64,000 bases of DNA. Source: Fistulifera solaris (taxonomy: Eukaryota). Shown here piece by piece: positions 9,308 to 34,034 of the stretch. Positions within the stretch are counted from its first letter, which is position 1. Each line of letters opens with the position of its first letter. The translations under genes and the position numbers were made by a program. The notes beneath the pieces were generated by a model. The model was given only the letters and a program-made list of their open reading frames with translations. It ran no database searches and was not told where the DNA came from. The stretch lies in NCBI GenBank assembly GCA_030295235.1, contig AP026144.1, positions 372,001-436,000 of the forward strand. Direction: 5' to 3'.

Positions 9308-11260
9308 ATGGAACAAGCATACATATCCGAAGGAACCTCTATCGATAAGGTGAGAGCCTCTTTGGTGCTTCGATTACAGGAAAAATTAGCCGTCCTGTCG
9401 TGTCATTCTTGCTTATGCGTTGTCGTCGATGTTGGTGAACTATTTAGTCTACCTGAATTCTAGATTCCCTTTTGCTATTAGCCTGTTTCAGTGTTCGAAG
9501 CTATTCGATGGAATCTCTATCTTTCATTTCTTTCACTTTTTGGGAACTGCATTGCTGTTGCCGTTATTTTTACTAATAACAAAATTTCATGTCTGATTGT
9601 CATCTCTACACGACTTTCTATAATAATAGGGCGAAAATGCACGATTGAGTTCCTTTGTAGGAGCCATTGCGATTGCCGACTTGATCAAAACGACACTGGG
9701 ACCACGAGGACTCGACAAGATCTTGCAAAAGTCGATCCGAGTGATCAAAGTATCACCATCACCAACGATGGGGCCACGATCTTGCGGTCCGTTCATGTCG
9801 ATAATGCGGCAGCTAAAGTTCTTGTGGACATCGCGAAAGTGCAAGACGAACAAGTGGGTGATGGGACCACGTCCGTGGCGGTATTTGCGGGAGAATTACT
9901 CCGTCAGGCGGAGAATCCTGGTCAACAATCGCATTCATCCACAAACGATCTGTGATGGATGGCGATTGGCGAGAGAGACTGCGCGTAGAACACTTGAAGA
10001 AGCTGCGACGAATTCATCCGAAGATACTGATGCGTTTCGCAAGGAATTAATGGAAATCGCGCAGACCACGCTTTCGAGCAAAATGCTGACTTTTGAAAAG
10101 GCTCATTATGCCAAGCTAGCAGTAGACGCGGTGCTGCGTTTGAAAGGTAGTAATAACTTGGATCACATTCAAGTACTCAAAAAACCCGGCGGTTCACTTC
10201 GAGATTCCTATTTGGAAGAAGGGTTCTTGCTTGATGGAAAATCGCCAGGAGTGGGTCAACCGCGCCGCATCGAAAAAAGCAAAGATTCTTCTCGCGAATA
10301 CAAGTATGGACACGGACAAAATCAAAATTTACGGAAGTCGTGTTAAGGTTGACAGTATGGACAAAGTAGCTGCGATTGAACAAGCTGAAAAGAAAAGATG
10401 CGAAGAAAGGTGGAAAAAATTGTGGGGCATGGGATTTCGTGTTTTATCAACCGTCAGCTTATCTACAACTATCCCGAGTCATTGTTTGCTAGTGCTGGTG
10501 TTATGGCGATCGAGCACGCTGATTTCGATGGAATTGAACGATTAGCCGCGGTTTTGGGTGGTGAGGTAGTCAGCACATTTGATCGACCCGATCTTGTGAC
10601 CCTTGGGGAATGCGATATTATTGAAGAGGTGAGTCAAGATTGAGACTTTACTTTTCTTTTTTAAGATGTGTTTTTGATTGTTTTCTGTAATCTTTGCTTT
10701 TGCTCAAATAGGTAATGATTGGTGACGACAAAGTCCTTCGATTCGGTGGCTGCAAGTCCGGTGAAGCGTGCTCCATAGTCCTTCGTGGTGCCTCGTCACA
10801 CCTGTTAGACGAAGCGGAACGATCGTTGCATGACGCTCTAGCCATCCTGATCGCTACAGTGAAAGAACCGCGAACTGTCTATGGCGGTGGCTGCACAGAG
10901 GTCATGATGGCTGCTGCAGTTGATCGTGCTGCCCAGGAAACACCGGGAAAGAAAGCTTTGGCTATGACTGCGTTTGCTACAGCCTTGCGACAGCTACCAA
11001 CTATTGTCGCTGACAATGGAGGCTATGACGCGGCAGAGCTTGTTACGGAGCTGCAAGCAGCGCATGCGGCGGGAATATCTTGTTCTGGTCTTGACATGGA
11101 TAAAGGATGCATTGGTGACATGAAAGAACTAGGGATCCGTGAATCATTTGCGAGCAAGTTGAACGTTGTTATGAGTGCATCCGAAGCCGCGGAGATGATT
11201 TTGAGAGTAGATGACATTATTAAAGCAGCACCACGTCAAAGGTCTGAAATGGGATACTAA
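9308..11260 (+). CDS. CCT2: T-complex protein 1 subunit beta (chaperonin CCT2)
   Basis: [69 protein letters not shown] and [15 protein letters not shown]. Introns at 9350-9629 and 10629-10711. Indels near 9727, 9915, 10275 and 10395. Confidence 0.95.
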
Positions 11261-11312
11261 ATGGATCATTTACTCAACTTATAATAAGACACAAGGCCTA
11301 CAGATCATCTAT

Positions 11313-12392
11313 TTAAATACCTAGTTGTAGCTGCATCCCTTGTCGACGGTGCATTTGCGCATCTCTTTGCTGTTCCAGTTCTTGTGCGGCGATCTCTTCT
11401 TGTCTCGAGTTCCAGGTACTTTTGTGATCCATGTAATCTGTATATACTTTGGTTTGAGAAGTCCGTTCCCTGTCGCGGAGCAACATCTTATTCTTCAATT
11501 CCAATGCTTCGGGAGGAACACTAGTAGATGGGATAGCAGAGCGCAAGTTATCAGCCGATTGGTTACAACAAATGGGATGCTTATCGTGTGACACAACGTA
11601 CCATTCAATTCGTACCGGATCATCCTTTTCGTGTAGCTGGTAGCGACAACACGGACAAAATACAATGCTGCTTTCGGCTGAACAGCTGATTCTACCGCAG
11701 TAGAGGCAGTTGACAGTAACATCGTGTCGTGTGCCAAAACAGTCACAAGGTTTTACCTTCGCATCGCCTTGCGGTGGCTTGCGCAGCGACGATAATTTCC
11801 GAAAGACAGGTTTTATAGCTAGTTGTGAACTTTCATTCTGCATTTGGGAAGATGAAGGCGTTGATGGAGGAATAGCATCATGATCGAAGGAAGCTTTTGA
11901 CGATGCTGGTTTTTCTTTCACCGATAACTTCTGCATGCTATTTTCAAGCACTTTCACGTTTCGAACAGATTTCGCGGCCGCTTCCAGATTTGACTGTTTT
12001 GTTTGATGTTTCATTTTGTCTGGTAACTTTGTTGGGCTGCTTTGTGGAAGAACTGGTCCAGAACTAGCTTTTGACTCTTCAACAACCAACGGCTGACCTT
12101 GCTGGTATCGAATCACATTGTCAACAAAGATATCAAATGTCGGTTGCTTGCGCGCTGAAGATCCTAACAGTTGCTCCAGATATTCCGATAAATCCTATAT
12201 TCCAGTGCGAGAGACGTTAGAATATGACGCGGCTCGTGTTTCTTTCGTTGCAGTAGATCAACTTACAGCCTTTGAGTCGATCGTAAACAAATGCTCCACG
12301 ATATCGCTTACGCCATCCGCGAAACCAAAAAGTTTAGCAAGCTGATCACTGAGGAGTGAAAGATCGATAGCTTTCTCATCATCGGTCGTCAT
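11313..12392 (-). CDS. ASC-1/TRIP4/Rqt4-like C2HC5 zinc-finger protein, without a visible ASCH domain
   Basis: CDCFGTRH...NCLYCGRISC...CPCC followed by ALELKNKMLLRDRE...TKVY.D. Upstream exon begins MTTDDEK...SDQLAKLL/GFADG. Probable introns near 12195-12266 and 11521-11601. Confidence 0.8.
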
Positions 12393-12602
12393 TGTGTTCG
12401 TTGAATATTATTTTGGAACTACTATTTTGCCGGCCTCGATGTGTGTTATGATTGAGCGGGGCGATTTGCAACAAAAAAGTAGTTCGTGAGTCAATTCGGT
12501 TTCGAGTCATAGATCGAAAAAACCTTTGCCGTGAAAACACAAAACTGAATATCAACCAACTAAATTGAAAATCGTACTAGAAGTCATTTCATTCAAAAGC
12601 AG

Positions 12603-15000
12603 CTACAAGAAGTAATCACTTGATATCTTTAACCCAGGCTGGGTCGACGTTAATGTGGGCCCTTGCATGATGCTGACTGGCGCGCTTTCTGTGGCACTGT
12701 CGGGAGAGATGTCGTATTCGCGGGGAGGCTCGGGGACTAAGAGATGTGGAGTCGGTGCCATTTCAGGTTCCTCGGAAGCATAGGCGCTCGATAGCTGCAC
12801 ATCGCTGTTCTCACTTGTATACACGTCGCTGCTCGCCCTCTTGCTCGCTGTGGAGTACGGTGCTGCCTCTCGGGCTTTATTGGGTAGCATGGAACTATTG
12901 CTGGCGAATGGGCTCGAATCGTCTTCTTCCACCATCATATCTTCCTTCAGACTTTCCAAGTAGTGGCCGCTACTTCTTCGACTTTTGAATTCAAGGCTGG
13001 ATTGGGAAGAATTCATACTTTCTCTGCTATCAACTTTTGCCCGGCTATGCATCCGTTCGCTTTTCTCTTGGAACTGGAAGTCACTAGAAAACCCAGATGC
13101 GTTCGAAGAACCCGTTCCTCTTGTTGATCGCCGTTGGCGTGAATCTTTGCCTGAGCTCGGATCGATTCTTGAAGCAGACGCCGCTGTGATCCCTCACTGC
13201 GCCCAATAAAGCGTTGAGCAAGAAGAATTTTAGGTACAAATATTAGCAGAAGGACAGCGGAAGCAATCGTAAAGATCATGAAAACAATAACCAAGTAGAA
13301 TGCTTGCGGTGACTCCTTGACAACAAATAGAATCGGAATACCGGAAAGCATGGCCTGAAGCAAGGAGGCCATGGATGTGGCAATATATTTTGACTCGGAA
13401 AACTCCGACTCGATGTAACGCGCTTCGTACGCTTGCCAGTTTGCCGCAGCGAGAAGACTGAGATTTACAGCAGCCAGTGGAAGAAGGAAGCGGAGAACGT
13501 TCTCTGATTTGCAGGCGCCGTACGTAGCAATAACGCGATCCCAGCCATCCAGACCAGGTAAGTCTTGCCGGGTATACGTCAGTGGATCGAGCACACTCCA
13601 GAGAGTCAATATCACAGTGTTTGCCATGAGAAGGCCAAAGAAAGGCAAAGCAACATCCTTGGGCTTAATCTCAACTCGCGCAAATCGCGACTTGCTGTGG
13701 AAGATTTTGTTCACGCGCATCGTCTTGGCAAAGAGAGCAGAAAAACTGATTGTAAAGCCTGTGGACGCAAGCCAGGGAACAGACATGCAAATAAGTTTGG
13801 CTTCTGTATCCGAAGGATCAAAAGGAATGCCGTTGTCGTCAAAGGAGAGCGGAATGAGAGACGACGCGAGAACCAACACACCAGCGGCGACCATTATCAA
13901 GAAAAACGGTTGCGCAGCTTTCACGATAATCAAATTTCGGTAAACGAGAACCCAGCATGAAAAGCCGATCGCAGCAGCTGCGATGAGGGCGAATAGGCAG
14001 AAGCCAACAATGTCGAGCGAGCCGATGAGGTTGTTATCGACCTCCAATGGTGGTAGTTCAAGTGGAATCAGTAAATGGGACAGGACGTTTGTCCCAATAA
14101 TATCTCCTTTTATGGGCTGGTCTTGGATCAGCTTGATTAGCGTATCCACAGACAACAGCCCCATCTCATATGGCAACTGTCCTACGAGACCCTGGACGTA
14201 CCCTCTATCGAGAAATTCCAGTTGATTCGGCATTGCATCTCCCGAGACCAGCGTAATGTTCTTGCTTCGATGTTCGTTGACAAAGTCCTTCCAGCAACAA
14301 CTCCTCATCGGTGCTCCCATGACCGGAACAATCGCCGTCGGAGGAGGATCATAACGAGCGAACTCCTGCATTTTCTCAATCGCTATCGACACATTAGCGG
14401 CAATATCAGCAGGAGAGTCTATCACTTCTCTCCACAGAACTCCTTTCTCCCGTTTCATTTCCTCCTGGAAGCCGCGAACGCGTTCTTGAAGATTCGGACT
14501 ATCAAACGTCGTCAGTAACGCATAAGTTCCTCCGTTCGGTTGCAATTGTTTGAGAACCTTGGCAATCTGGGCTCCAAAGAAAGTATTATCAGTGCCGATG
14601 TATGCCTGTCTATTAGAAAGTGGTGCGTCACTGTCGAAGGTAACGACGGGGATTCCTTTCTCGACCGCACGATTGATAACATCGACAATAACTTCGGCGT
14701 TTCGGACGCTGATTGTTATACCGTCTACGAGGTCATTGTTGATGAGATCTGCAATTATTTCAGACTGCTGAATTCCCAGTTCATCCTCTTCTTCTGTTTC
14801 CGGTCCGACATAGGTACAGTTGACCTCCACGTTCATACGACCCCCGAGAATGAGGGCACCATCGATGCAACCTTCTCGGGCACCGTCGAAGTAAGGGTTT
14901 GTAAGCGCCTTAGTCACCATCGCAATTCTAATCACCCCTTTGCGTCCTGCGCTCGAGCCAGCAGGAATGGGAGGAGGGTTATCAATGTCTTGAAGTACAT
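12603..15000 (-). CDS. Class C (GABA-B-like) 7TM GPCR with an RbsB-like periplasmic sugar-binding ectodomain, copy 1
   Basis: Signal peptide MYFKTLITLLPFLLARA. PBP motifs NPYF, PVVTFDSD, YIGTDN, ERVRGF and GQLPYEMG. 7TM motifs VKAAQPFFL, FSALFAKTMRV, EFSESKYI and LIFVPK. Indels near 14935 and 13130. Ends SDYFL. Confidence 0.9.
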
Positions 15001-15581
15001 GACAGACCGTCCCGTTTTCGATAATCGTATTTTTCCTCCTGGATAAGTTCTTAGTGAAGGTAAAATGACACAGATAAAAACTTCCTAAACGTTTTCTCTT
15101 TCCCCCCTCACGGTTTCCCTTTCTTGCTTGCGTTAGGTAGTGTTTCGTATCAAAGGGAAGCAAAAGAATGGCACAAGCTTCATCAAAGCGGAACGTGCGT
15201 TATAGTTATATATCTTTTTTTCGTCGCCGTCGCTGCGCTTGTTACTTTTCTTGCTTTGAATTGTCACTTCAATCCAGTCATCAGTCGGAATGACCACTAC
15301 TCTATCCGAGATAGAACTCAAGCGAATACGAAAACCGATATCTTCTATGTCCAGCAGCTATCCAGCTACAGTAAGAGGCTACCAACTGTCCTATGTCAGA
15401 TGTCTGATTTCGAAGGCCTTATTTTCTCTGTAGAAAAACGCAGAGTCAATTCTGCTTTCGTATTGGAGTAGTATCTAACCAGTCTACAAAGTAGAGTCTC
15501 AAACGGGGCATAAGATGATTTATGTCCTAATGGCTTCCCCCTAACGTTTCAAGAACGCAAAGCACCTCAACGACTACTCAT

Positions 15582-15666
15582 CAGGAAGGTGCGGGAAAAA
15601 GTGTACACTCACGTAGGCCCCCGTAGAGATATGTACCAAGCAGAGGTGCGTTCCCGTGTCTCCCAG
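15582..15666 (+). repeat. 85-bp dispersed non-coding element, copy A
   Basis: Matches the reverse complement of 33950-34034 at 77 of 85 positions. The core 15612-15666 matches at 54 of 55. Confidence 0.9.
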
Positions 15667-16043
15667 GCCAAAGTCAAAATTCAAAATTCAAAACTTCATC
15701 GTAGAAAGCCTGAATTTTGAAACCATTCAATGCTAAGAAACGCTCACTTTGAAACTTTTGTCAATTTATTTTTAGAATAAATCAATATTTCATACATTTT
15801 TTGCTAAAAACAGCAAAAAACAATGATCCAAAAATTGGCGACCGCGACGAAGCCAGTCTTCTTCGAATTTCAACGCGAAAAAAAGCGAAACAACGATGAG
15901 ATTATTTTAGTGAGCCAAATTCTTGCCATCCGCAGATCGTGATGGTCTCGCAACTACTAGCTACGACAACAAACTACGGTACATCGTAAGGTAGTCAAAA
16001 GAAAACATTTACGTCTACGAGGTAACGATGATGGGGTGCCCGA

Positions 16044-18421
16044 CTACAAGAAATACTCGCTCGGCTTTTTCTTCTTTGGCACTGTCGTACGGGCTGATTC
16101 CGGTGGAGGTAACTTTTGCCCGTGATCCGCCATAAGATGAGCGTTACTGATTTGGTGTTCTTTCGGTGGCTCTGGCACCACAAGCTTCGATGTTTTTCCC
16201 GATGTCATCGACGATAGATTAACTGCAGCTTGATCGGTGTTTGCGAGCTCCACGTCGCTGCATTCACTCGGCCACGCCTCGCTGTCGGATGTCTTGTTTC
16301 CAATGAACTGGGGCATATTCTGCGGCGCCTCCGGTGGTGAGCTATCTTCCTCGATCATTACGTCTTCCTTCAAGCTTTCCAAGAAATGGCTATTTCGTTT
16401 GTTCTTGCCGCCGCGAGTGGAGTGCGATGATTTCACGCTTTCGCGACCATTCACTTTTACACCGTTGCCATCCGGTCCTTGAGACTCACATGACGACGCA
16501 GCGGAAAATCCACCCGATGGATTCGAAAGACCTGAAATATTAGAGGATCGTTGAGGACGCGCGTCTTTGGCTCGAGCCCGGATGGACTCTTGGATGAGAC
16601 GACGTTGCGAACCATCACTGCGCCCGATAAATGGTTGCGCAAGAATGACCTTGGGGACAAAGATCAGCAAAAGGACAGCTGATGAAATGATGAAGATCAT
16701 AAAGACAATAACTAAGTAGAATGCTTGAGGCGACTCGCGGACAACGAACAGTATCGGAATACCAGAAAGCATGGCTTGGAGAAGTGAAGCCATCGACATG
16801 GCGATGTACTTGGACTCCGAAAATTCAGACTCGATGTAACGCGCTTCGTACGCTTGCCAGTTTGCCGCAGCGAGAAGACTGAGATTTACAGCAGCCAGCG
16901 GAAGAAGGTAATGGAGAACGTTCTCTGATTTGCACGTGCCGTAAGTGGCGATAACTCGATCCCAACCATCTAGGCCAGGTAAGTCCTGCCGCGTATACGT
17001 CAATGGATCGAGTACACTCCAAAGCGTCAAAATCAGCGTATTTGCCGTGAAAAGGCCAAAGAAAGGCAAAGCAATATCTTTTGGCTGAATTTCAACGCGG
17101 GCAAAGCGAGACTTGCTATGAAAGATCTTGTTGACGCGCATCGTCTTGGCAAAGAGCGCAGAGAAGCTGATGGTAAAACCAGTGGAAGCCAGCCAGGGAA
17201 CAGACATGCAAATAAGTTTGGCTTCTGTATCCGAAGGATCAAAGGGAATGCCGTTGTCGTCAAAGGAGAGCGGAACGAGAGACGACGCGAGAACCAACAC
17301 ACCAGCGGCGACCATTATCAAGAAGAACGGTTGCGCGGCTTTCACGATGATCAAATTTCGGTAAACGAGAACCCAACATGAAAAGCCGATCGCAGCAGCT
17401 GCGATGAGGGCAAATAAGCAGAGGCCAACGATGCTGAGCGAACCGATAAGGTTGTTATCGACTTCCATGGGCGGTAGTTCGAGAGGAATTAGTAAATGGG
17501 ACAACACGTTTGTGCCAATAATATCTCCTTCAATGTCCTCTTTTGGATCAGCTTCAAGAGTGTTTCAACAGACAACATACCCATCTCATAAGGCAACTGC
17601 CCGACAAGACCCTGGACATATCCCCTATCGAGGAACTCCAACTGATTCGCCATTGCATCTCCCGAAACCAGTGTGATGTTTTTGTCTCGATGTTCGTTGA
17701 CAAAGTCCTTCCAGCAACAACTTCTCATCGGTGCCCCCATAACCGGAACGATCGCCGTCGGGGGCGGGTCGTAATTGGCAAACTCTTGCATCTTTTCAAT
17801 AGCAATATCAATATTGCTTTCGATATCAGCAGGAGAGCCCGGTACTTCTCTCCACAACTCTCCTTTCTCACGCTTCATTTCCTCCTGGAAACCGCGAACG
17901 CGCTCTTGAAGGTTAGGACTCTCGAGAGACGTTATCAGTGCATAAGTGCCTCCATTCGGCTGCAACTGCTTGACGACTTTAGCAAGCTGCGCCCCAAAGA
18001 AGGTATTGTCTGTACCGATGTAAGCACTTCGCATAGAGTCCGGTGAATCGCTGTCAAACGTAACGACAGGAATACCTTTTGCTACAGCACGGTTGATAAC
18101 CTCAAGCAAGGTCTCCGCGTTACGGGCACTCACAGAGATACCATCTACGAGATCGTTATCGATGAGATCGGCGATGATTTCAGCTTGCTGGATACCAAGA
18201 ATGTCTTCATCATCCTGTAGGGGGCCCACGTAACTACAATTTACTTGCATGTTCATGCTATCACCGAAGATGAGGGCACCATCAATGCAGCCGTCTCCGG
18301 CCACATCGAAGTACGGATTGGCAATGGACTTCGGCACCAGCGCGATTCTCGTCACGCCATTCGCATCCTGCGCTCGGGCTAGCAAGAGTGGAAAGAATGT
18401 TAGCAATGTTAGAAAGTTCAT
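16044..18421 (-). CDS. Class C (GABA-B-like) 7TM GPCR with an RbsB-like periplasmic sugar-binding ectodomain, copy 2
   Basis: Tandem paralog of 12603-15000 with the same motifs. Signal peptide MNFLTLLTFFPLLLARA. ORFs 17489-18463 and 16044-17507 join across an indel near 17540. Ends SEYFL. Confidence 0.9.
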
Positions 18422-19933
18422 GTTACTCTTTTTATGATCTACTTCTTCGTTTTCATCTGACACCTCGGATTGATAATGTCAAAAGTTAGGTCAGGAAGAT
18501 GATGCACACCTCGAACGAGAAATGAGAAAAGAAAGACATCTTCGTGATTTGTGGCATCAGACATCCAAGGGCTTGCGCTTCGGGTTTTTGATTGCAAAAA
18601 TAGTAAAGACAATACGATAGTCGCATGCCATAACTACCGAAGATGACTCTGTGAAACACACTTCCTACTTCCTGCTCAGAATGGCTTTCTGCGTCAGGCC
18701 AGGACATTTTGTTTTCTTGCAATTTACTAATGATGGCTACTGATTTTAGTTTTCACCGTGTTACAAGTATTAAGAGTTTGAATGAAAATCGTCGAGGGTC
18801 TTGGTCAATAGTTGTCAGTGGTTAGCTTTCAGTCTTTTGTTTGCTGCGAATATTAAATGCTAATTGCTAAGATCTTGTCGTGATATCGTTCTGCCGTCCT
18901 GCTTCAAAAGATCTTGAGAGTAGGGTACCAGGTAGGGATAGGACGTTAGTTCAATAAATTCTATCCATTTTTATTCTCTCTCTCCTGGGCTCCTGGGTAA
19001 AGGGTGAAGAATGAGAAATGAGAATGGGAACTCCAGGAACTGGCTTATGACTCAAAACTCAAAATAATAATGAGTACGCATGACAACCGAAGATGATTGA
19101 GTGACAATTGATAGGAAAATGTGATGACCGGCGCCAGAGACGACCTGAACATTGAATCTGGCTCTTGCTCTTGGCTCTTAACTCTGATCCTGCCCTTTTG
19201 CATTTTCCTTCCTTCCGCCTCTTATCCGTGCTCTCTGCACCCTGCACCCGACACATTGTTTCATTTTTTTGAACCCTGATGTTTCGGTGATGTGATTGGT
19301 GATACTTGATCTTAAGTCTAAGCTAATTCGTAAAAGACAGAAGGCCATAAACAGTGGACCCTGTCATTATTCATTATCAGATATCAGAGATCGGAATTTG
19401 GTGTTTGGTTGGTTATCGTCAAAAAGTCATACAAGTTGATCCCTCATCGACATCCCCCATCGCCCGTCGTAAAGACCTTTTGATGACCTTCAAGTTCAGG
19501 CTTGTAAGGCCTAGCATCCAGGAAAGAGTTTGAGCGTATCTTTTATACTCGTACAGTATGTCCTCAATCTACGTGAGGGCCAAAACATGGGCGATAACTC
19601 ATGACTGAATTCAGACATATAAAAGCTAAATACATCATGGTTGAGGAGCCGCATCCATCAACACTAACGACATAACGAACGCCAAACGATACATGGTTGC
19701 GTTTCGTACTTATACATAGCTCATACAGATCCTTGTTACATTAATTCTGTGTGATATGAATTATCCGAATTTGTAGCATCAAGAGTGAGAAAACAAGCAG
19801 ATGAACTGGAATAAAGTTCTTGGCGAGGACCTTAATTTTCTAGGTACGAGCTGGCTTCAAGTTTAAAGTACAGCATTTTTTGTGCAATTTGTGCAAAATG
19901 GTATATGCAAAGCAAGACATAGACAACCCCACT

Positions 19934-33949: not shown

Positions 33950-34034
33950 CTGGGAGACACGGGAACGCACCTCTGCTTGGTACATTTCTCTACGGGGGCC
34001 TACGCGAAAGTACACAATTTCCCTCACCGTCCTG
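33950..34034 (-). repeat. 85-bp dispersed non-coding element, copy B (inverted relative to copy A)
   Basis: Reverse complement matches 15582-15666 at 77 of 85 positions. Confidence 0.9.

Follow-up and report, generated by a model that had tools for sequence, protein, structure and literature searches.

Two adjacent genes of the diatom Fistulifera solaris raise the question of what receptor results when a binding domain of bacterial transporter type precedes a seven-transmembrane (7TM) region, where such a domain came from and what it might bind. The initial annotation had read the pair as tandem G-protein-coupled receptors (GPCRs) with an ectodomain like that of E. coli RbsB, perhaps derived from a bacterial donor. 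Two such genes are indeed found on the minus strand at positions 12603-18421 of the window, which is the whole stretch of 64,000 nucleotides that was analysed, and they are intact tandem duplicates encoding class C (GABA-B-like) GPCRs. The order of parts is as described there, and comprises a signal peptide (recognised by eye), a Peripla_BP_4 ectodomain, a stalk without cysteines, a 7tm_3 domain of GABA-B-like type and a Ser-rich tail in each gene, with both Pfam families that had been expected. The features are as follows.

12603..15000, minus strand: gene A, with ATG at 15000 and stop at 12603-12605, equal to F. solaris FisN_7Lh167 (open reading frames and deposited protein)
14935..15000, minus strand: gene A signal peptide MYFKTLITLLPFLLARAQDAKG (by eye and from the N-terminus of the deposited protein P0004; the main open reading frame is in a different frame in the window)
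14120..14917, minus strand: gene A Peripla_BP_4 ectodomain (Pfam PF13407, E 6.7e-37, residues 2-267 of the minus-strand open reading frame 13016-14920)
14018..14119, minus strand: gene A Cys-free stalk from the ectodomain to TM1 (short strands 279-281 and 284-288 in the full model)
13229..14017, minus strand: gene A 7tm_3 domain, seven helices and helix 8 in the model (Pfam PF00003, E 1.7e-37; GABAB2, E 1.6e-19; AF2 pLDDT 94.1)
12606..13228, minus strand: gene A cytoplasmic Ser-rich tail, ending in ...SSDYFL (open reading frame 12603..13193 and P0004)
15001..16043, no strand: intergenic spacer between A and B, containing a short dispersed repeat at ~15586-15666
16044..18421, minus strand: gene B, with ATG at 18421 and stop at 16044-16046, equal to F. 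solaris FisN_7Lh168 (open reading frames and deposited protein)
18356..18421, minus strand: gene B signal peptide MNFLTLLTFFPLLLARAQDANG (by eye)
17540..18346, minus strand: gene B Peripla_BP_4 ectodomain (Pfam PF13407, E 1.2e-39; AF2 pLDDT 96.0; top structural match AraP, Z 28.9)
16650..17441, minus strand: gene B 7tm_3 domain (Pfam PF00003, E 6e-37, residues 42-305 of the minus-strand open reading frame 16047-17564)
16047..16649, minus strand: gene B cytoplasmic tail, ending in ...PSEYFL (from the sequence)

The putative signal peptides, as judged by eye, read MYFKTLITLLPFLLARA and MNFLTLLTFFPLLLARA, each followed by QD. The deposited protein of FisN_7Lh167 (P0004, 799 aa) is 100% identical to gene A of the window over 287 tree columns, and that of FisN_7Lh168 (P0175, 792 aa) is 100% identical to gene B over 261 tree columns. 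The paralogues, which share 75% identity and have near-identical 7TM domains, stand side by side in both subgenomes, and the genes around the pair are ordinary eukaryotic genes. A Pfam search of the gene A tail returned nothing at the gathering threshold.

Ectodomain, stalk and transmembrane domain

The ectodomain is a CUT2 / Peripla_BP_4 type-I periplasmic binding protein and not an animal ANF-receptor Venus flytrap (VFT), as had been read from the sequence at the outset. The Peripla_BP_4 profile scores 127.9 bits in gene A and 136.8 bits in gene B against a curated cut-off of 35.1, and neither gene has a Pfam match to ANF_receptor or NCD3G at E<=0.1. The AF2 model of the ectodomain (pLDDT 96) has the two-lobed type-I fold, and the 50 matches listed from Foldseek and VIA are all SBP-fold entries, with no class C VFT among them. 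AraP is the best structural match (Z 28.9, rmsd 1.9, 254 residues), and further matches include a glucose/xylose-binding protein (Z 27.8), XylFII (26.6), GanP (25.5-25.7) and the ribose-binding protein RbsB (2dri, 23.9). Among the listed matches with a named ligand or function most are sugar binders, accompanied by the AI-2 receptor LsrB and designed allose binders, and several further entries are unassigned structural-genomics SBPs.

Among solved structures the closest relatives are the bacterial CUT2 proteins AraP (6sw4), GanP (6gq0/6gt9/6guq), the T. maritima glucose-binding protein TmGBP (2h3h), the glucose/xylose-binding protein 3c6q and the B. graminis SBP (5hqj), which have a common fold with the ectodomain (Z 24.0-28.9 over 252-254 residues), although sequence identity is just 25-31% (E 2e-25 to 5e-16). 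In the three alignments given, those with 5hqj, GanP (6gq0) and TmGBP, these proteins share with it the motif D-S/T-D-S/A-P..R..Y-I/V-G-T-D/N-N together with R, D and Q pocket residues. The comparison with RbsB that had been drawn initially holds at the level of the Peripla_BP_4 family and the common fold, but RbsB itself is a distant relative, with 23% identity and a fold rank of 30 or lower, and the trees place it far off as the outgroup; a clade of SBPs of alphaproteobacterial type is closer (39% identity). The bacterial CUT2 proteins serve ABC transporters as soluble or lipid-anchored partners, whereas in F. solaris the domain forms one chain with a 7TM receptor and no permease or ATPase gene lies alongside, the neighbours being unrelated eukaryotic genes. 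The XylFII-LytS xylose sensor (5xsj) likewise employs a CUT2-type sugar-binding protein in signalling and not in transport; however, XylFII is a separate protein that docks on a bacterial histidine kinase, and is neither a fusion nor a GPCR.

The 7tm_3 profile scores 129.9 and 128.1 bits against a cut-off of 33.5, and the closest solved relatives of the 7TM domain are GABAB2 (the best match) and GABA-B1 (E 2.6e-18), with mGluR4 reaching only 7e-7, in agreement with the GABA-B-like character first noticed by eye. The FVPK stretch of TM7 is aligned in the matches to GABAB2 and mGluR4. In the full AF2 model seven helices are predicted (305-331, 336-363, 376-413, 425-449, 480-507, 513-538 and 543-577), in addition to helix 8 (581-591), the stalk strands and an ECL2 hairpin (453-476). 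Since the cysteines ahead of TM1 are limited to C45, C62, C235 and C236, the Cys-rich linker is indeed absent, as had been proposed. Animal GABA-B receptors also have a two-lobed binding domain before the 7TM region without a Cys-rich domain, but in them that domain belongs to the ANF_receptor / LIVBP type.

This architecture is not new, because class C GPCR candidates with an N-terminus like an ABC sugar transporter had been described in Phaeodactylum tricornutum (Port et al. 2013, PMC3727952). As far as the text of that report considered here goes, three sequences carry such an N-terminus, and GPCR1a and GPCR1b are splice variants of one gene. The F. solaris pair, although from another species, matches the description (a diatom protein with a sugar-ABC-type binding domain and 7tm_3 but without a Cys-rich domain), and the likeness is one of description, as no P. 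tricornutum sequences are among the homologue matches listed. P. tricornutum cells overexpressing GPCR1A adopt an oval form that colonises surfaces (Fu et al. 2020, PMC7452957). The portions of PMC3727952 and PMC7452957 considered here give no ligand, pocket analysis or ectodomain phylogeny; room for novelty lies in the ligand and the formal analysis of origin, where the initial annotation had also placed it.

Family spread and origin of the ectodomain

The family comprises at least 135 clusters at 50% identity (E<=1e-30) from pennate and centric diatoms, with matches named from eight diatom genera, and 119 of the 120 homologues listed, transcriptome-derived proteins of other diatoms included, have both domain families. 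In a careful IQ-TREE run all 33 GPCR ectodomains form one clade (support 99/97), which falls within a 48-row clade together with bacterial SBPs (100/99); further presumably bacterial rows lie outside that clade (100/99, 100/100), and a FastTree analysis of 279 rows agrees. The trees are rooted on RbsB, and the rows without a transmembrane segment ('noTM') are taken to be bacterial by assumption. The nearest bacterial homologue (L002) lies in an ABC operon with an ATPase, a permease and an SBP. This nesting among the binding proteins of bacterial ABC transporters, shown by an origin tree that is new here, is consistent with a single acquisition from bacteria and a single fusion, and the bacterial donor suggested at first sight fits the trees. 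With the root on RbsB, transfer would have run from bacteria to diatoms.

Binding pocket and candidate ligands

The stretches NPYF, FDSD, ERVRGF, SGDA and GQLP, in which the initial annotation had recognised sugar contacts of RbsB, are all present in both genes and align with RbsB by hhalign (probability 99.5). They were compared with ten residues that we take to be the ribose contacts of RbsB, whose types at those numbers agree with the RbsB sequence. Six are identical (N13, F16, D89, R141, D215 and Q235) and one is conservative (F15 to Y), but three are altered (R90 to S, F164 to I and N190 to M). The position of F164 is unreliable because hhalign and MAFFT align it differently, giving I in the former and S/A in the latter.

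A census of the pocket across the family, which is new here, covered 171 GPCR-linked ectodomains. The D/R/D/Q core is retained in 163-169 of them (D89 in 167, R141 in 165, D215 in 163 and Q235 in 169), F/Y15 in 165, F16 in 152 and N13 in 104, and the position of RbsB residue 190 is highly variable (M in 49, G in 44, L in 16 and T in 15). Conservation of the pocket could partly reflect constraints of the fold. The retained contacts also occur in the aligned stretches of TmGBP, GanP and the SBP 5hqj (the last without N13), which argues for a sugar-like ligand and not for ribose. Specificity for ribose is not supported, since RbsB is not the closest relative, identity to it is low and the three contacts are altered; a monosaccharide-like ligand is plausible from the sequence comparison.

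The explanation that we favour, and consider reasonably probable, is that a bacterial CUT2-type module was acquired once and fused once to 7tm_3, and that a carbohydrate-like ligand drives G-protein signalling. An SBP gene of bacterial origin would have been taken up once by an ancestor of the diatoms and joined, in a single event, to a 7tm_3 receptor, after which the family expanded. A small carbohydrate-like ligand (an aldopentose, an aldohexose or a closely related compound, and not ribose in particular) would be held between the two lobes by the conserved putative contacts N35, Y37/F38, D123, R174, D255 and Q275. Closure of the clamshell would reach the 7TM bundle by way of the short stalk without cysteines and the hairpin in ECL2, the bundle would then activate a heterotrimeric G protein, and the variable pocket positions (RbsB 13, 164 and 190) may tune specificity among paralogues. 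The more far-reaching proposal, that one ancient transfer brought in a bacterial ABC sugar-binding protein which, fused to a GABA-B-like 7TM domain, founded a large, diatom-wide carbohydrate-sensing GPCR family, is offered tentatively, as a possibility that falls short of being the expected outcome. If true, sugar sensing by class C receptors would have evolved separately from the T1R sweet receptors of animals, and diatoms could detect dissolved sugars, breakdown products of exopolymers or bacterial neighbours, and then switch to surface colonisation.

The same architecture might instead serve a ligand other than a simple sugar. Polyols, sugar acids and a bacterial signal of the AI-2/DPD kind are candidates, as are further small metabolites that bacteria or other algae release. 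The AI-2 receptor LsrB is among the Peripla_BP_4 relatives (5gta, E 1.7e-8; 3t95; 1tjy; 1tm2, Z 26.2), the positions equivalent to RbsB R90, F164 and N190 are altered, with 190 highly variable in the family, and the bacterial sister clade has no characterised ligand. However, the LsrB sequence score is far below those of the sugar-binding relatives, the closest solved relatives with a named ligand, by sequence and fold, bind arabinose, glucose, galactose and xylose, and the RbsB-type hydroxyl-binding core is almost invariant, so we regard such a ligand as rather unlikely.

GABA-B subunits function as heterodimers, and the tandem pair could by analogy form one in which one or both ectodomains no longer bind, leaving a constitutive receptor or a non-binding partner, like GABA-B2 for GABA-B1. 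The resemblance of the 7TM domain to GABA-B subunits and the adjacency of the paralogues in both subgenomes speak for such an arrangement, which nevertheless appears improbable, because the nine reliably aligned pocket positions are all the same in A and B and the core is conserved throughout the family, which argues that the binding site is maintained in both. The close similarity of A and B is also unlike the specialised GABA-B1/B2 pair, and heterodimer specialisation of the GABA-B kind is not evident in them.

Frame breaks in the window sequence

The reading frames are interrupted three times in the window, each time by a one-base homopolymer deletion.

14934..14938, minus strand: gene A, first frameshift, G-run one base short (an X1 contig has one base added behind 14934)
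13145..13148, minus strand: gene A, second frameshift at the start of the tail, A-run (T on the plus strand) one base short (an X1 contig has a base added behind 13145)
17536..17541, minus strand: gene B, frameshift at the boundary of ectodomain and stalk, A-run (caaaag) one base short (a base is added behind 17540 in two contigs each of X1 and X2)

Contigs from the independent runs X1 and X2, whose labelling as RNA is a guess and on which expression of the genes rests, have one additional base at exactly the three break sites, and P0004 and P0175 read through all of them, making introns unnecessary. Because both contigs and deposited proteins read through, the apparent frameshifts are deletions of this assembly; within the same 6.3 kb, five more indels relative to the run contigs lie outside coding sequence and likewise point to assembly error. 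The three breaks would fit pseudogenes, or separate genes for a secreted binding protein and a headless 7TM protein, and in gene B the two domains do fall in two overlapping open reading frames of the window, but such a reading is hardly credible given the restored bases, the non-coding indels, the full-length deposited proteins in both homeologues (7Hh167 and 7Hh168 included) and the single unbroken 635-aa open reading frame of gene A that holds both domains. In the spacer between the genes, the short dispersed repeat at ~15586-15666 reaches a depth of 3689 in run X1, with many loose ends.

Gene pair and reading frames

The two genes, A (FisN_7Lh167, protein match P0004) and B (FisN_7Lh168, protein match P0175), are arranged in tandem on the reverse strand of the window, and their frames are interrupted at three homopolymers.

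12603-18421, - strand: ORFs of the gene pair A and B
15000 (ATG) to 12603 (stop), - strand: gene A
18421 (ATG) to 16044 (stop), - strand: gene B
~14934, - strand: gene A, first break, G-run with one base missing in the window
~13145, - strand: gene A, second break, A-run with one base missing in the window
~17540, - strand: gene B, break, A-run with one base missing in the window

These three frame breaks are assembly errors, and both genes are intact. Contigs of the public sequencing runs, compared over 12400-18700, carry one extra base behind 14934, 13145 and 17540, and the best database matches, P0004 (799 aa) and P0175 (792 aa), are continuous through the breaks and otherwise identical to the translation of the window. 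Over 6.3 kb, the window differs from the contigs of other runs by eight 1-base indels (12473, 13145, 14934, 15102, 15161, 15537, 17540 and 18428), three of which fall in coding homopolymers and the other five in non-coding parts. Neither the contigs nor the deposited proteins depend on the window assembly, but they may derive from related data and are perhaps not independent of each other. Introns can be ruled out as the cause of the breaks, because homology is continuous over each of them and one added base restores the frame. Other ORFs of the window may carry similar assembly breaks; a TCP-1/cpn60 chaperonin gene occupies two separate ORFs (9630-10346 and 10712-11260, + strand), divided by either an intron or an assembly indel.

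The spacer between A and B contains a short dispersed repeat (15586-15666). It has a very high contig depth, 3689 in public run X1, with many different flanks, and it recurs in the window at 33966-34006 (- strand) with 2 mismatches over 41 bases. It matches neither a tRNA nor an Rfam RNA.

A and B are 75% identical overall, with nearly identical 7TM regions, ectodomains at ~81% and diverged tails. Their homeologues in the other subgenome, 7Hh167 and 7Hh168, are full length and also adjoin each other, so the tandem duplication predates the merger of the F. solaris subgenomes. The C-termini (12606-12700 and 16047-16140, - strand), although otherwise diverged, both contain VPEPP[RK]E and end in [DE]YFL, which could be a sorting or docking motif.

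Receptor architecture and known relatives

The domain architecture read by eye in the initial annotation is matched in both genes by Pfam. Peripla_BP_4 (PF13407, E 6.7e-37) and 7tm_3 (PF00003, E 1.7e-37) lie inside one unbroken 635-aa ORF of gene A, and the same families (1.2e-39 and 6e-37) are spread over two overlapping ORFs of gene B. The proposed lack of a Cys-rich linker holds as well, since the ORFs of both genes do not match NCD3G at E<=0.1 and only four cysteines (45, 62, 235 and 236), which probably form two disulfide pairs, lie upstream of TM1 in both proteins, the stalk having none. ANF_receptor is likewise unmatched at this threshold. The N-termini are typical signal peptides, as judged by eye, and the tails are Ser-rich and match no Pfam family. 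The solved structures closest to the 7TM region are GABAB2 (1.6e-19) and GABA-B1 (2.6e-18), followed by the metabotropic glutamate receptors (7e-7), which bears out its description as GABA-B-like; the TM7 FVPK stretch is part of the alignment. Modelling of gene A, ectodomain to helix 8 (pLDDT 94.1, 99-row alignment), predicts seven helices together with a hairpin in ECL2 and two short strands in the stalk.

An alternative reading would place the ectodomain and the 7TM region on separate transcripts. Coverage in run X2, labelled RNA on a guess, is confined to the two gene bodies (13455-14931 and 16198-18518) and the repeat, with the other intergenic bins empty, and the contigs of this run bridge the junction of the two domains in both gene B (17382-17716) and gene A (13961-14296). 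Furthermore, the two-domain homologues of other diatoms include transcriptome-derived proteins. Uncovered parts of the locus in runs X2-X4 were left out of the evidence. Together, the bridging contigs and the homologues speak against separate transcripts, although less strongly than raw stranded reads would.

Both Pfam families occur in 119 of the 120 full-length homologues among the matches listed, and an exhaustive ectodomain search at E<=1e-3, 1e-10 and 1e-30 yields 3008, 700 and 135 representatives, respectively. The named members come from Fistulifera, Amphora, Seminavis, Cylindrotheca, Nitzschia, Entomoneis, Cyclotella and Thalassiosira, and a transcriptome sequence of the ciliate Tiarina is positioned inside unnamed GPCR-linked rows. 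In P0111 and P0122 (Nitzschia sp.), the receptor's cytoplasmic tail carries a fused ornithine cyclodeaminase/mu-crystallin domain (PF02423).

A and B were previously in databases as hypothetical proteins and are ordinary family members. The novelty first claimed for them was overstated, as they belong to a known kind of receptor, the P. tricornutum class C GPCR candidates whose N-terminus resembles an ABC sugar transporter protein (Port et al. 2013, PMC3727952). These Phaeodactylum receptors lack the Cys-rich domain and have unique tails. GPCR1A, a GPCR of the 2013 set that perhaps carries this ectodomain, leads upon overexpression to the oval, surface-colonising form of P. tricornutum, and the accessible sections of the study state no ligand for it (Fu et al. 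2020, PMC7452957). Outside animals, 7tm_3 receptors combine with various PBP-fold domains, as described by Krishnan 2012 and de Mendoza 2014. In main texts, we found nothing on the Peripla_BP_4 plus 7tm_3 architecture beyond Port 2013; it may be included in supplementary figure S3 of de Mendoza 2014. Likewise, a search of publications without their supplements found none on the ligand, pocket or origin of a diatom Peripla_BP_4 GPCR ectodomain. To this, the present analysis adds the single-origin tree, a census of pocket residues and the demonstration of gene intactness.

Fold and predicted ligand pocket of the ectodomain

The ectodomain of gene B (residues 23-294) was modelled with AlphaFold2 from a 42-row alignment at pLDDT 96.0 and pTM 0.88. 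All structural matches listed (Foldseek, VIA-align) have the fold of bacterial ABC-transporter solute-binding proteins (SBPs) of the sugar-binding type, among them AraP (arabinose, Z 28.9), the glucose/xylose-binding protein 3c6q (27.8), XylFII (26.6), 5hqj (26.1), GanP (glucose/galactose, 25.5-25.7) and the E. coli ribose-binding protein 2dri (RbsB, 23.9), along with LsrB, designed allose binders and SBPs without an assigned ligand. By sequence, the closest solved relatives are 5hqj (2e-25), GanP (1e-21) and the T. maritima glucose-binding protein (3e-19); E. coli RbsB is absent among the 31 solved-relative matches at E<=1e-3 and is 23% identical to the diatom ectodomain in pairwise BLASTP. 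Since RbsB is distant and other sugar SBPs are nearer, the ectodomain belongs to the 'RbsB family' solely in the broad Peripla_BP_4/CUT2 sense: the sugar-SBP fold of the initial annotation stands, and the assignment to RbsB itself was too specific.

To compare the pockets, RbsB was aligned with the diatom ectodomain profile (probability 99.5, E 3e-22). The ligand contacts of RbsB, which we take to be the ten residues tabulated below, agree in residue type with the fetched E. coli rbsB at those mature numbers.

Presumed RbsB contacts and the aligned diatom residues (P0004/P0175 numbering)
RbsB N13: diatom N35
RbsB F15: diatom Y37
RbsB F16: diatom F38
RbsB D89: diatom D123
RbsB R90: diatom S124
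RbsB R141: diatom R174
RbsB F164: diatom I200 (unreliable; S/A by MAFFT)
RbsB N190: diatom M228
RbsB D215: diatom D255
RbsB Q235: diatom Q275

Of the ten contacts, six are the same residue, one is a conservative substitution and three differ. The core of D, R, D and Q also occurs in 5hqj, GanP and the glucose-binding protein (three alignments), so it does not point to ribose. In a census of 279 rows aligned with MAFFT --auto, this core is near-invariant among the GPCR-linked ectodomains (D 167/171, R 165/171, D 163/171 and Q 169/171), and the aromatic pair is kept at position 16 (F in 152/171) and position 15 (F or Y in 165/171). At position 13, N occurs in 104 of the 171 and S in 43; at position 90, S is found in 145 and R is not among the six commonest residues listed, and position 190 is variable (M 49, G 44, L 16 and T 15, n=171). 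A conserved core combined with variable positions is the pattern that we would expect of a sugar-type site that has been maintained and whose specificity can be tuned. A sugar as the ligand class is plausible by homology, and specificity for ribose is not supported.

Diatoms account for a large share of ocean carbon fixation and their chemical contact with bacteria is close, and to our knowledge a ligand is known for no diatom GPCR. For proteins of the SBP-type fold, thermal shift or ITC usually identifies the ligand readily; as the ectodomain is predicted to be soluble and well folded, the question of what diatom GPCRs sense becomes directly testable. The identity of the ligand would also bear on biofilm and biofouling biology.

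Bacterial relatives and origin of the ectodomain

Stand-alone bacterial relatives with 39% identity were found at 45 loci, chiefly in Acetobacteraceae and other Alphaproteobacteria. The nearest of them (locus L002) is encoded downstream of an ABC ATPase and a permease, and its surroundings suggest a sugar-uptake neighbourhood. Another Peripla_BP_4 gene at this locus is paired with a permease of its own (10608-12716), and genes for two MFS transporters and a response regulator lie close by.

A FastTree phylogeny was built from 279 rows (171 with 7TM, 67 without, 40 bacterial loci and RbsB), leaving out rows with <235 profile positions and five duplicates. All 171 7TM rows fall into one clade (support 99) with 35 rows that have no detected 7TM, and the sister group of this clade consists of 33 bacterial rows. 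In a more careful tree of 65 chosen rows (IQ-TREE, LG+C20), the 33 GPCR rows group in a single clade (99/97), which recurs in all 200 bootstrap trees. Support is 100/99 once five basal rows without 7TM are included, and the further inclusion of bacterial SBPs gives a 48-row clade, also at 100/99, outside of which lie more presumably bacterial rows (100/99, 100/100). The bacterial donor first proposed as a possibility agrees with both trees, and the nesting of the GPCR clade among bacterial SBPs fits one bacterial acquisition followed by one fusion, with the RbsB root and the source of the unnamed rows as the weak points of this reading. The trees would then illustrate cleanly how a component of bacterial transport was rebuilt as a eukaryotic receptor.

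Two well-supported Peripla_BP_4 clades in which no 7TM was detected (P0210/P0229/P0226 and P0207/P0235/P0231/P0247) are basal to the GPCR clade and may represent stand-alone eukaryotic forms older than the fusion. One of their members, P0229, carries ~350 residues without assignment ahead of its Peripla_BP_4 domain.
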